Shown here in pieces: positions 653-10,765 of a DNA stretch of 64,000 nt; position 1 is the stretch's first letter; the number at the start of each line of letters is the position of its first letter. The stretch covers positions 544,001 through 608,000 of the forward strand of contig CAVZMH010000016.1 in assembly GCA_963776345.1 (NCBI GenBank), written 5' to 3'. This stretch comes from an uncultured delta proteobacterium. GTDB lineage: Bacteria; Myxococcota; Myxococcia; Myxococcales; Myxococcaceae. Under the pieces are notes generated by a model. That model made no database searches. It had not been told where the DNA came from and saw only the letters and a list, made by a program, of their open reading frames with translations. The position numbers and the translations under genes are program-made.

Positions 653-1516
<864 letters not shown>

Positions 1517-1538
1517 GGCTGCCGGCCCCCGCCCGCGG

Positions 1539-2213
1539 TCAGCGCTTGCCCTTGCGGGCCTTGCGCGGCTTCGCCACCCGGGCCGCCCGGGCGGCGCGGG
1601 CCACCGGACGGGCGCGCGCACCCTTCTTCGCCGGCGGGCTGGCCTTCATGCGCTTGCCGGTGATGACCTTGAGCTCCTCGGTCGTGACGTGGCCCATGTC
1701 CAGGAGCGCCTGGAAGATGCGCAGCGCGCCCGACTCCACCGTCTCCACGTCCGAGCGGATGGTCACCTCCGGAGAGGAGGGCGGCTCGTACGGCTCGGTG
1801 ATGCCGACGAAGTTGGGGATCTCCCCGGCCAGCGCCTTCTTGTACTTGCCGGTCGAGTCGCGCTGGATGAGCCTCTCCGTCGGGCAGTCGACGTAGACCT
1901 CGAGGAAGCGGCCGATGAGGCGCCGGTTGTCCTCGCGCGCACCCTTGTACGGGCTGACCGAGGCCACCAGGGTCGCGACCTGGTTACGGGTCAGGAGGTT
2001 GGCCACGAGCCCGAGTCGGCGCACTCCGATGTTGCGCTCCTCCTTGGTGTCGGCCGTGCCGCCCCAGAAGTCCTCGGCGAGGTCGTTCTCGTCCAGCACC
2101 TCGACGGCGCGGGCCACCTGGCGGAGCCGGGCGGCGATGTAGTCGACCAGGGTCGTCTTGCCGGCGCCGGACATGCCGGTCAGCCAGAGGGTGAAGCCTT
2201 GGGTGGGTGCCAT
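1539..2213 (-). CDS. cysC: Adenylyl-sulfate (APS) kinase-family protein with basic C-terminal tail
   Basis: WLTGMSGAGKTT P-loop, VSPY, EVYVDCP, FVGITEPYEPP; ATG at 2213 preceded by GGAG. Confidence 0.82.
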   Translation of the reverse strand: MAPTQGFTLWLTGMSGAGKTTLVDYIAARLRQVARAVEVLDENDLAEDFWGGTADTKEERNIGVRRLGLVANLLTRNQVATLVASVSPYKGAREDNRRLIGRFLEVYVDCPTERLIQRDSTGKYKKALAGEIPNFVGITEPYEPPSSPEVTIRSDVETVESGALRIFQALLDMGHVTTEELKVITGKRMKASPPAKKGARARPVARAARAARVAKPRKARKGKR

Positions 2214-2235
2214 GAATACTCCGCGGGTGCGGGGC

Positions 2236-2251
2236 CGCAAAATTCGTACCA
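2236..2251 (-). promoter_or_regulatory. Sigma54 (-24/-12) promoter upstream of cysC-larE
   Basis: Minus strand TGGTACGAATTTTGCG: GG-N10-GC spacing, close to consensus TGGCACG-N4-TTGC. Confidence 0.72.
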
Positions 2252-2365
2252 GCGCGCGAAACATGAGGCGCTGCGCAGACTTGTGTGTACACGAAGTCGC
2301 CGTTCTTGACAATTGTAACTGCGGAGACGGACGGCCTGTGTGAGGACGCAAGCGCCTGGATCGAC

Positions 2366-3364
2366 TCAGGATTGACTCGGAAGCGGACAGTCCCACTCCA
2401 CGAAGTCACCCTCGCTCCACACGGCCCAGACGGCGCTCGGTGGACGGCTGGCACAGAAGGCCACCACCAGGTGGGCCACGCCGGGGTGGAGGGGCTGTCC
2501 GTCGGGGGCTGCCCAGCCTCGGTCCTCGGCCGAGAAGTCCTTCCCGCCATCGGGATGCGAGTGGGCGATGGCGAGGACCCGCTCCCCCGCCGCGTCGGCC
2601 GCCCGGAGCAGGGCGAGCCAGGCGCGCGGGTCGAAGCTGAAGGCGGTCCGGGGCGAGCGAGGAAACGCCGCGGGGTCGCGTGCGTGGTGGGCGCCCTGTG
2701 CGTTCTCCATCGGGACCAGCCGGACGGTGTCCTCGCGTCCGAGGAGCACGGCGCAGCCTTCGTCCGGCAGCGCCGCGGCGAGATGGCGCAGGAGCTCGGC
2801 CATCACCGCCTCCGGCACGGCGGGAGGTCGATGGATGCAGGCGGGAGCGGCGAGCGTCGAGAGGCTGCCGGTCGCCGAGACCTCCGCGCCCTCCATCCCC
2901 GCAGCGAGACCGAGGGCCCGGCGCTGCACCAGCAGGGCGACGAGGCTCCCGACCTGGACGCTCGCCCTCCCTGCTTCCTCCGGAGGCCCGAGCTCTCCCG
3001 CCGCGAGACGGAGGCACGCTCTGCAGCCGCCCTCCTCGATGGACCACAGGACGTGAGCCCCCGCCCGGGTTCCCACCACCACGACGCCCCCTCCTTCCGG
3101 CACCGTGGGAGGGGCGATGACCCGGAGCAGGCGCCCCGGAGCCGCCCCGAGGAGCGGCGGCGTGCGCGCCCAGGCCGCCGTGGCCTCGCCCTCGAGGTCC
3201 ACCTCGGTCCCCCCCGCCCGGAGGTACGCGGCGGCGGCGAGCGCGGCCTCGCCCCCGAAGGCGAGCTCGACCCGCACGGCGCCGAGCGCCTCTTGCCCGC
3301 GCTCGCCGACGTCACGGAGCAAGAGCTGACGGGCGTAGCGCTGGATCTGTGGCTCGCTCAGCAC
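2366..3364 (-). CDS. Fusion of a degenerate ThiF/MoeB (E1-like) domain and a JAMM/MPN+ (Mov34) metalloprotease
   Basis: N-terminal QIQRYARQLLLRDVGERGQEAL, internal CRAC; C-terminal PDEGCAVLLG and AHSHPDGGKDFSAED (JAMM HxH..S..D); GTG at 3364 overlaps the tusA stop. Confidence 0.8.
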   Translation of the reverse strand: MLSEPQIQRYARQLLLRDVGERGQEALGAVRVELAFGGEAALAAAAYLRAGGTEVDLEGEATAAWARTPPLLGAAPGRLLRVIAPPTVPEGGGVVVVGTRAGAHVLWSIEEGGCRACLRLAAGELGPPEEAGRASVQVGSLVALLVQRRALGLAAGMEGAEVSATGSLSTLAAPACIHRPPAVPEAVMAELLRHLAAALPDEGCAVLLGREDTVRLVPMENAQGAHHARDPAAFPRSPRTAFSFDPRAWLALLRAADAAGERVLAIAHSHPDGGKDFSAEDRGWAAPDGQPLHPGVAHLVVAFCASRPPSAVWAVWSEGDFVEWDCPLPSQS

Positions 3365-3600
3365 GGCGGCGCCTCTCGCCGGAGGAGCAGCCGCCAGGTG
3401 CCGTCCTCCAGCGCCTCGAGCCCGAGCACGGTGTGCCCGGCGTCGCGCGCGCTCTCCGGCACGTTCCTCAGCGGCTCGTCGCCCCTGAGCCGGACCTCGA
3501 GGACCCCACCGACCGGGAGGCGCTCCAGCGCGATCTTGGTCCGGACGAAGGTCATGGGACAGACCTCGGCGGTGATGTCGATCCGCGCGTCCGGCCTCAC
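3358..3600 (-). CDS. tusA: TusA/SirA-family sulfur carrier
   Basis: IDITAEVCPMTFVRTKIALERL (CPx motif), 80 aa; GTGA overlap with the upstream gene. Confidence 0.85.
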   Translation of the reverse strand: MRPDARIDITAEVCPMTFVRTKIALERLPVGGVLEVRLRGDEPLRNVPESARDAGHTVLGLEALEDGTWRLLLRREAPPC

Positions 3601-4257
3601 GCCCGTCCTCCGCACCCGGGGCAGCCGGGCGCTCGCCGGACGGTGAGCGTCCGGAAGCGCAGGGTCCGCCCGTCGACCACGTGGAGCGTGCTCTGCCCCG
3701 CGGGCGACGGCGGCCCGAGCGCGAGGGAGGCCTGCAGAGCGCCGAGCACACCGGCGAGCGAGCCGAGCACGCCCGCGCGGGCGCAGGTGGGCACCTCGTC
3801 TTCCCTCGGCGCGGTGCCGTACAGGCAGCGGAGGCACGCCCCGCCGGGGTCGATGCGCATCGCCTGCCCGCCCCACTGGACCACGCCTCCGGACACCAGC
3901 GGCGTCCCGGTGCGGGCGACCGCGTCGGACATCTGGAATTTGGCCCCCACCGAGTCGGTCCCGTCGATGGCCAGGGCGTGGCGTGAGAGGAGCGCTTCGA
4001 CCTCCTGGGGGGCCGATGCGCTTCACCCAGGTCTCCACCTCGAGCCCGGGGAAGGCACGGACGAGCCGCTCGCGCGCGACCGCAACCTTGAACCGCCCCA
4101 CGTCCTCGGGCCCGTAGAGCGGCTGGCGATGGAGGTTGGAGGTCTCGACCACGTCGCCGTCGACGAGCGTGAGGCGGCGCGCCCCGACCCCGGCGAGCGC
4201 GACGGACGCCGGACACCCGAGCCCGCCCATGCCGATGATCACCGTCGCGCCCAGCAT
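3597..4257 (-). CDS. MoeB/ThiF-family adenylyltransferase; apparent extra base in the G6 run at 4007-4012
   Basis: GMGGLG, DGDVVETSNLHRQ, DGTD, CLRC, PTCARAGVLG, CPGC spread over two frames; removing one base restores IGPQEVEALL. Confidence 0.82.
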
Positions 4258-4279
4258 CGCCGGCGCTAGGGTACGTCAC

Positions 4280-4656
4280 ATGCGCCCTGCCCTGCTCCCG
4301 GTCCTGCTGCTCGCCGCGGCCGCGTGTCCTCCCCCCCCTCGCACCAGGCGAGCGCGCCCACGCCGGCCCAGCCCGCGGCGCCTGCGGCCCGACCGGGGCC
4401 GGCCACGGAGCGGTCCGCTGTCCCTGCGCCGGCACCCGCGCCCGCCATCCGGCTCGATGCCCGGCAGACCGAGTGCGTGGAGAAGTGGCTCAAGGGGCAC
4501 GGCCTGGACGCGTACGGCAACCCGGCGGGCACGATGTACGCCGGCGGGACGCCCACCTTCGACGAGGCCACGGGTCGCTCGGTGGACCGCTGGACGCTGG
4601 TGGCGAAGAACCGGCCCGAGGCGCTCCAGAGCTGCGGGGTCCCCCTCCCGCCCTGA
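4280..4656 (+). CDS. Putative lipoprotein of unknown function; apparent frameshift in the C8 run at 4331-4338
   Basis: MRPALLPVLLLAAAAC lipobox in one frame; Pro/Ala linker and domain LDAYGNPAGTMYAGGTPTFDEATG in ORF 4324..4656. Confidence 0.65.
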
Positions 4657-4671
4657 GGGGCGGTGCAGCGC

Positions 4672-5139
4672 TCAGGCCGGCGCTGCGGCACCGACCCGTC
4701 GCTCCAGTGCGGCGATGACGTCGTCCAGGTGCCGCCAGACCTGGCGCTCGTGCTGGATGACGTCCTCGATCCGCCCGTCGGGCGAGACGACGAACGTCAC
4801 CCGGCGGCTGATGCGCACCAGGGGCCAGAGCACGCCGAACTTCTCGCTGATCTTCCGCTCGCTGTCGCCGAGCAGCGGGTACTCGATCTTCTCGCTCCGG
4901 GCGAACTCGCACTGGACCTCGGGCCGGTCCACGGAGACGCCGACCAGCTCGCCGCCGAGCGCACGGATGCGGGCCTGGTTGTCGCGGAAGTGGCGGATCT
5001 CCTCGGTGCACCCCGCGGTGAACGCCTTGGGGAAGAAGAAGAGCACCAGCCGCCGGCCGCGGAAGTCACCGAGGCGGACGGTCTGTCCCTGACAATCGCG
5101 CGCCTCGAACTCCGGCGCCGTGTCACCCACCGCGAGCAT
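4672..5139 (-). CDS. bcp: Peroxiredoxin (BCP/PrxQ family)
   Basis: FFPKAFTAGCTEE (PxxxTxxC), RRVTFVVSPDGRI. Confidence 0.88.
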   Translation of the reverse strand: MLAVGDTAPEFEARDCQGQTVRLGDFRGRRLVLFFFPKAFTAGCTEEIRHFRDNQARIRALGGELVGVSVDRPEVQCEFARSEKIEYPLLGDSERKISEKFGVLWPLVRISRRVTFVVSPDGRIEDVIQHERQVWRHLDDVIAALERRVGAAAPA

Positions 5140-6375: not shown

Positions 6376-6433
6376 CGGGCCCCACGCTGCCTGGCCTGCC
6401 GCGGCAGGTCCAGGAGCAAGCTCCGAGCGCTCA

Positions 6434-10765
<4,332 letters not shown>

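Follow-up and report, generated by a model that had tools for sequence, protein, structure and literature searches.

A MoeB/ThiF-type E1 gene in the window (the whole stretch of DNA analysed here, 64,000 nucleotides in length) lacks the N-terminal segment that carries the Arg finger, and a second gene two places downstream begins with such a segment and has lost the catalytic motifs. The question raised by this locus is whether the two genes encode the halves of a single enzyme. The best reading of the gene and fold comparisons set out below is that they do: truncated MoeB and its inactive partner would form a heterodimeric E1 with one active site, a reading to which we give a probability of about 0.75. 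MoeB and ThiF are described as homodimers with two active sites (PMC12355090), and the step from such a two-site homodimer to a one-site pair of active and inactive subunits is central to the evolution of E1 enzymes; the locus offers a minimal version of that step (219 plus about 180 residues).

Two E1-type genes with complementary losses

The putative catalytic subunit is encoded on the minus strand at 4257-3597, and its protein starts with MLGATVIIGMGGLG. Upstream there is an in-frame TGA at 4276-4278 and, at 4280, the divergent ATG of a small lipoprotein-like gene (4280-4656, plus strand) that is conserved beside the operon. The stop, six codons 5' of the truncated E1, is not conserved within the genus, where the open upstream frames extend from 1 to 107 codons; no RYxRQ segment was found in those open frames. 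The gene product corresponds to a MoeB/ThiF protein without its first 27 or so residues, and it keeps the P-loop, SNLHRQ, K57, DGTD, two zinc-binding CxxC pairs (CLRC and CPGC) and the loop cysteine in PTCARAG. Residues G9, G11, G14, N41, R44, K57, D101, C141, C144 and C212 are invariant in 61/61 truncated E1s. Positions 24-100 and 102-237 of the Pfam ThiF profile are matched, in two frames, and the protein scores under every NCBIfam cut-off for MoeB/ThiF. An Arg-finger segment of its own is absent, the Pfam match beginning at position 24 of 238 and the structure aligning from MoeB residue 28. In the predicted model of an intact orthologue from genome G003 (pLDDT 95.1) the adenylation fold spans the whole 219-residue subunit from end to end, with no catalytic Cys domain or UFD; this model superimposes on E. 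coli MoeB 28-248 with Z 28.7 and rmsd 1.6 over 204 residues, and residue 1 of the truncated-E1 model falls opposite SAE2 residue 14 in the structure alignment.

The partner gene (3364-2366, minus strand) starts with (V)LSEPQIQRYARQLLLRDVGERGQEAL and runs in frame into a Prok-JAB domain. Its inactive E1-fold domain, residues 1-177 (2834-3364), was assigned by profile, AF2 model and Foldseek; it keeps the RYARQ segment, a helix tyrosine (Tyr47) and the zinc ligands, and is without the P-loop GxGxxG, SNLxRQ and DxxD. The helices that it keeps are those that form the dimer interface in MoeB. A profile built from 23 partners matches E. coli MoeB from residue 4 to 225 (E 2.6e-18) as well as ThiF, and SAE1 weakly (E 0.004), so that the partner is a whole E1 domain and not a mere N-terminal fragment. 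Alignment to 1jw9 places the codon of Arg12, the equivalent of MoeB Arg14, at 3329-3331; Arg14 has been named as the Arg finger (PMC13139853). Arg12 is invariant in 23/23 partners, and in 120/120 of a larger set that was itself gathered with an Arg-bearing profile; it is the second arginine of the RYxR motif that does not vary, the first being variable. Among the best 150 profile matches in 1.84 billion representatives, RYxR and CxxC are each present in 146, SNLxRQ in none and a P-loop-like string in three. A tyrosine in the helix after the P-loop position shows the same division: 28 of 36 full-length matches and 102 of the 120 partners have it, whereas it is missing from all 61 truncated copies. 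The AF2 model of the G003 partner domain (pLDDT 90.8) has ThiF and MoeB as its top Foldseek matches, and its VIA Z scores of 12.0-12.7 are tied between SAE1, APPBP1, ThiF and MoeB. The family is widespread and mostly labelled 'hypothetical' in databases, and would gain a putative function.

Between the two lies a gene for a TusA/SirA-type persulfide carrier (3358-3600, minus strand; CPMT motif; PF01206, E 3e-19), and the three genes (4257-3597, 3600-3358 and 3364-2366) overlap at both junctions. All that the original prediction reported of them, from coordinates and motifs to the TGA, the ATG and the overlaps, holds.

Frame and gene order in the assembly

The break in the catalytic frame, previously attributed to an indel at 4007-4012, is due to one extra base near this G run. 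With that corrected the frame is single, as it is at 9/9 same-genus loci that carry both halves, and there is one base fewer at 4006-4008 in the contigs of three of four sequencing runs, from three studies; the contigs of the fourth stop there. Most probably the frameshift is a fault of the assembly, and a biological frameshift was rejected on the intact frames of the relatives and the near-identical contigs that lack the extra base. It had also been asked whether the fusion of the partner to a JAMM domain might be an artefact. A single contig covers positions 1500-4700 of the window unbroken, so neither the fusion nor the gene order arises from the assembly, and a chimeric origin was rejected. 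In the lipoprotein-like gene the window is one base short near 4330, where four runs have that base. The minus-strand gene at 6431-10744 / 6526-8262, which by its sequence encodes the RNA polymerase beta-prime subunit, changes frame near 8250, where the assembly probably has a further indel.

Co-occurrence of the two halves

If the two genes encode halves of one E1, as originally predicted, truncated MoeB should be found with an RYARQ-bearing partner. Loci were tabulated at one row per genome, with a score above 150 bits against a custom MoeB profile and at least 1200 bp of downstream sequence, six edge rows being dropped. An adjacent partner accompanies 90 of 91 truncated E1s (46 genera, 12 families) and 0 of 25 full-length E1s; the genomes are related and the counts not independent, and they are given as a pattern with no significance level. 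Eighty-six of the 90 partners pass the Arg pattern, and two more (G029 and G103, the G103 gene being frameshifted) keep the arginine on inspection. The remaining two, G186 and G193, have lost it; there both halves have decayed together, the catalytic copy also being without SNLxRQ. A counter-example is G047, whose N-short E1 lies in the operon without a partner and has kept a short N-terminal stretch with an arginine. A broader tally (274 of 301 genomes, the unpublished G205 among them) mixes partners with ordinary MoeBs and is not used for any conclusion here.

Most of the 91 truncated loci had been found via the partner, and two partner-independent tests were therefore carried out. In 90 genomes that do not belong to the order, a partner-blind search with the Pfam ThiF profile yielded nine MoeB-type sequences among 20 N-short matches examined, and all nine (9/9) have an adjacent Arg-bearing partner; the other 11 belong to different E1-like families. 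Thirty-six genomes in which the partner scored weakly were searched for MoeB; two were left out, and the others gave 14 pairs, one locus cut by a contig end, one unsplit operon and 18 genomes with only full-length E1s among the copies examined. Unsplit operons, in which a full-length E1 stands without a partner, occur in G148, G278 and G284 in the order Rrf2-cysK-full E1-TusA-Ubl-cysM-JAB-cysC-larE. Eighty metagenome loci collected with a Binatia-like alignment comprise 20 with truncated E1 and partner, 15 with full-length E1 only, none with full-length E1 and partner, 42 with partner only (mostly on short contigs) and three others; a metagenome scan with P0133 as query gave no match. On two related metagenome contigs, L300 and L305, a partner-like gene occurs without a truncated or catalytic E1 within about 4 kb; this inactive E1-like gene, at 3995-4657, lies downstream of an era-like GTPase gene.

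A locus scan with a single-protein query detected the pair in Myxococcus, Corallococcus, Pyxidicoccus, Hyalangium and Archangium. Myxococcus xanthus AM003 carries the locus at a contig end, with the partner partial; this species is genetically tractable, and the unsplit operons offer natural controls. On the strength of these relatives the window itself would belong to the Myxococcales. Partner clusters occur also in Candidatus Binatota/Binatia. In quick trees the partners lie on one side of a branch, the branches are long and the origin of the truncated copies may have taken 2-3 changes; these trees omit rows dropped by a motif filter (19 and 6 missed), and no order of events was drawn from them.

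Taken with the unsplit operons that lack a partner and with the fold comparison, the co-occurrence strongly supports a split E1 with complementary halves. The foremost alternative, an unlikely one, is that the truncated E1 works by itself as a homodimer, and that the partner is a co-inherited, non-catalytic adaptor, for example a carrier scaffold for CysM or JAMM, which leaves the active site as it is. The Arg finger is reported to be non-essential in MoeB and ThiF and to be absent from E. coli TcdA (PMC13139853), G047 lacks a partner, and there are 12 genomes with a partner-JAMM fusion and one, G178, in which Ubl and partner are joined, all of which would suit an adaptor. It leaves unexplained, however, that the best-kept residues of the partner, Arg12 and Tyr47, are the very ones that the truncated copy has lost, that no full-length copy (0/25) has a partner, and that the pair persists at loci without JAMM (11 of 59), Ubl (32) or cysM (41).

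The operon and the JAMM fusion

The fullest operon has the order [Rrf2]-cysK-E1-TusA-Ubl-partner-cysM-like-JAB-cysC-larE. Among 59 loci with at least 4 kb of downstream sequence, TusA is present in 44, Ubl in 27, a cysM-like gene in 18, JAB in 48, CysC in 45 and LarE in 53, and nine have the partner-JAMM fusion. In the window the JAMM/MPN+ protease domain (2366-2833, minus strand), an in-frame fusion in this genus, matches Prok-JAB with E 1.4e-18 (PF14464, 67 bits against a cut-off of 25) and contains the motif E...HxH-x7-S-x2-D, its residues E202, H268, H270, S278 and D281 being invariant in 15/15 aligned fusions. Further along the minus strand are genes for the APS kinase CysC (1539-2213), a conserved operon member, and for a LarE-family sulfur insertase (653-1516) with SGGxDS and CxxC-C motifs, scoring 309.6 bits with TIGR00268 (cut-off 150). 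The CxxC-C arrangement of LarE is of the [4Fe-4S] type (PMC9283937).

In the fuller operon of relatives a carrier, a cysteine synthase, a JAB protease and an E1 stand together, a combination known from the mycobacterial CysO/CysM/Mec pathway (PMC3227635); the PALP gene of the operon has cysM as its best match, at a score under the cysM cut-off. In gene content this operon corresponds to a sulfur relay of the CysO/CysM/Mec kind, extended by TusA, CysC and LarE and showing no sign of protein conjugation; TusA probably supplies the sulfur, as a rhodanese domain does elsewhere. The original prediction listed three genes correctly and missed the Ubl and cysM-like genes of the fuller operon, which this genus has lost. 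It also over-weighted the JAMM fusion, which was rejected as a defining trait since no more than 12 of 91 genomes have it and 11 of 59 loci have no JAMM nearby. The 12 fusions come from three genera and lack both Ubl and cysM in 12/12, and Myxococcus and Corallococcus show an intermediate state in which cysM has gone while partner and JAB are adjoining and separate; the fusion is for these reasons best read as a late read-through that would have followed gene loss, the E1 pair being the stable core.

The original prediction had left open a Ubl or a sulfur carrier as the object of the pair. The operon, with TusA, a CysO-like carrier, cysteine synthases, CysC and LarE, argues for the sulfur relay. 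A sampylation-like system, in which Ubl would be attached to proteins and removed again by JAMM, is improbable. The operon Ubl of G015 scores just above the SAMP1 cut-off (62 bits against 60), and, while many operon Ubls end in GG plus one or two residues, those of Myxococcus and Corallococcus end in plain GG and JAMM is kept there although cysM is gone. On the other hand, no E2- or E3-like gene was found among 42 neighbours scanned, the neighbours are sulfur-metabolism genes, and the genus offers other plausible JAMM substrates in ThiS and MoaD-MoaE.

Likely substrates in this genus

The locus in the window has neither carrier nor cysM, and a profile of ten operon carriers found no CysO-type carrier in the genome concerned (G000, 98% complete). 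This genome encodes two ThiS-family proteins and one full-length rhodanese-MoeB, and the fused JAMM is its sole JAB above the Pfam cut-off. A ThiS ending in GGGA lies beside thiG (C15:45037) and a linear MoaD-MoaE fusion is encoded at C1:178670, both arrangements being genus-wide: ThiS ends in GGG plus A or V in 13/13 cases and MoaD is fused to MoaE in 10/10, a 24th ThiS-family match being unclassified. JAMM is reported to cleave MoaD-MoaE in Deinococcus (PMC8832034). By their sequences ThiS and MoaD-MoaE would both need JAMM trimming in the genus, and hence JAMM would be kept. The same gene content suggests that the pair may now charge ThiS and/or MoaD in trans, in which it may be redundant with the full-length rhodanese-MoeB. 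Gene adjacency makes LarE a candidate downstream sulfur acceptor of the pair; a larB-larC pair (C17:271381-273161) and a LarA-type gene (C22:498656) elsewhere in the genome complete a nickel-pincer cofactor pathway with the larE of the window. A Sat-type ATP sulfurylase (PF01747) was not found in G000.

The presence of a full-length MoeB in the same genome would fit a partner that acts as a regulator, switching or dampening either the truncated E1 or the rhodanese-MoeB, and a role of this kind has been speculated for the inactive yeast protein Tcd1 (PMC13139853). This is very unlikely: an inhibitor would have no need of an Arg finger, and, as the genes overlap and are strictly adjacent, partner and truncated copy are probably produced 1:1. 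That the locus is a decaying relic in this genus, with a frameshift, a lost carrier and an accidental fusion, has in its favour the loss of carrier and cysM and the true decay in G186 and G193, but is largely refuted, and of the four alternatives the least credible, given the intact frames at 9/9 same-genus loci, the near-identical contigs without the extra base and the retention of every catalytic motif.

Comparison with known E1 systems

Both subunits share the fold of E. coli MoeB and ThiF, and the truncated copy has all the catalytic motifs; the difference is that MoeB and ThiF are two-site homodimers, whereas here complementary halves lie on two genes. Heterodimeric E1s are known in eukaryotes (PMC12355090, PMC11354881). 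SAE1-SAE2 and NAE1(APPBP1)-UBA3 likewise combine an inactive and an active adenylation subunit, from separate genes and with complementary motifs, a likeness read here from the genes; the Z scores of the partner model against SAE1 and APPBP1, 12.4-12.7, are level with those against ThiF/MoeB. In contrast to these eukaryotic enzymes, no Cys domains, UFD or E2 were found with the myxobacterial pair. This looks like a parallel origin and not shared descent, because in sequence the partner matches MoeB/ThiF (E about 1e-18) far better than SAE1 (E 0.004).

The bacterial BilD, of the Bil antiphage ubiquitination system, is also a pseudo-dimer of inactive and active adenylation domains, with Arg9 supplied by the inactive domain (PMC10557695). 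It differs in being a single chain with a Cys domain, an E2 and a place in a defence operon, where the present system has two genes in a sulfur-metabolism operon; according to the same preprint every other bacterial E1-like protein known so far forms a homodimer. The closest mechanistic precedent is yeast Tcd1-Tcd2, of the ThiF family, in which one subunit depends for its stability on an inactive paralogue, from which it also receives an Arg finger that is non-essential (PMC13139853). That pair is eukaryotic, acts on tRNA and is described as showing single-residue losses, whereas here a whole N-terminal segment has gone.

In gene content the nearest systems are CysO/CysM/Mec/MoeZR and the types 4c and 4e of Iyer et al. 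2006 (PMC1779556), which share a ThiS/MoaD-like carrier, a cysteine synthase, a JAB protease and an E1; type 4e adds SirA(TusA) and APS kinase, and its E1 is without rhodanese. As described, these have one full-length E1, where here it is split. The accessible text of PMC1779556 makes no mention of a split E1, and 'heterodimer' occurs 0 times in its main text. No two-gene bacterial E1 heterodimer appeared in the literature searched by titles and the beginnings of abstracts; subscription work, for example Burroughs et al. 2009 on the E1 superfamily, may already note such pairs.

Proposed origin and mechanism

The heterodimeric E1 could have arisen as follows. An ancestral MoeB/ThiF gene of a sulfur-relay operon would have been duplicated and the copies would have divided the work, one keeping the ATP site, carrier-binding site, zinc sites and loop cysteine and losing the N-terminal helices, the other keeping the N-terminal Arg-finger segment, helices and zinc site and losing everything catalytic. 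The product would be a pseudo-symmetric heterodimer with one active site, like SAE1-SAE2 and NAE1-UBA3, in which both the missing part of the fold and the Arg12 that reaches the ATP phosphates would come from the partner; the role of the partner is more likely structural than chemical, in that it is probably needed for stability above all. As the Arg finger of MoeB/ThiF is reported to be non-essential, we regard the odds that the heterodimer is obligate as about even; the pair also allows one to ask why an arginine reported to be dispensable is so strictly kept.

With a full operon, and by analogy with the mycobacterial pathway, JAMM would trim the CysO-like carrier to Gly-Gly, the E1 would adenylate it, and TusA persulfide would convert it to the thiocarboxylate, on which the CysM-like enzyme would build cysteine for release by JAMM. 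This genus has lost the carrier gene and cysM; with these gone, the genes of partner and JAMM will have lain side by side before they fused, and the enzyme would now most likely serve ThiS and/or MoaD and may feed sulfur to LarE.

A more general proposal, which on the gene comparisons has even odds of being right, is that Myxococcota and Binatia possess an ancient E1, encoded by two genes, obligately heterodimeric and marked by reciprocal loss in both subunits, with an origin separate from that of the eukaryotic E1s. The unsplit, split, JAMM-fused and decayed states would then form a living series from homodimeric MoeB to a one-active-site E1, and the reduced form (E1 pair, TusA, JAMM and LarE) would serve several carriers as a general hub for maturation and sulfur loading.

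Divergent loci

Several loci depart from the arrangements described above. One genome has a second E1/partner pair (L137, G150:C1:3603063) with no further operon gene detected, the 'catalytic' copy of which has altered P-loop and SNL motifs. In L238 (G078) and L250 (G093) a MoeB domain without RYxRQ is fused behind what looks, by its motif, like the C-terminus of MoaE, and no partner was seen nearby. Two Magnetococcales proteins, P0226 and P0243, have RYSRQ without SNLxRQ, one of them being fused to TusA, and are possible partners from another phylum. Other in-frame fusions within the operon join E1 to Ubl, E1 to TusA (three genomes) and Ubl to partner (G178); the loci concerned are L055 (G028), L050 (G018), L063 (G025), L131 (G069) and L144 (G178). 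In family f7 (L075, L133, L134, L136 and L144) DsrE-like genes take the place of cysK upstream of the E1 pair.
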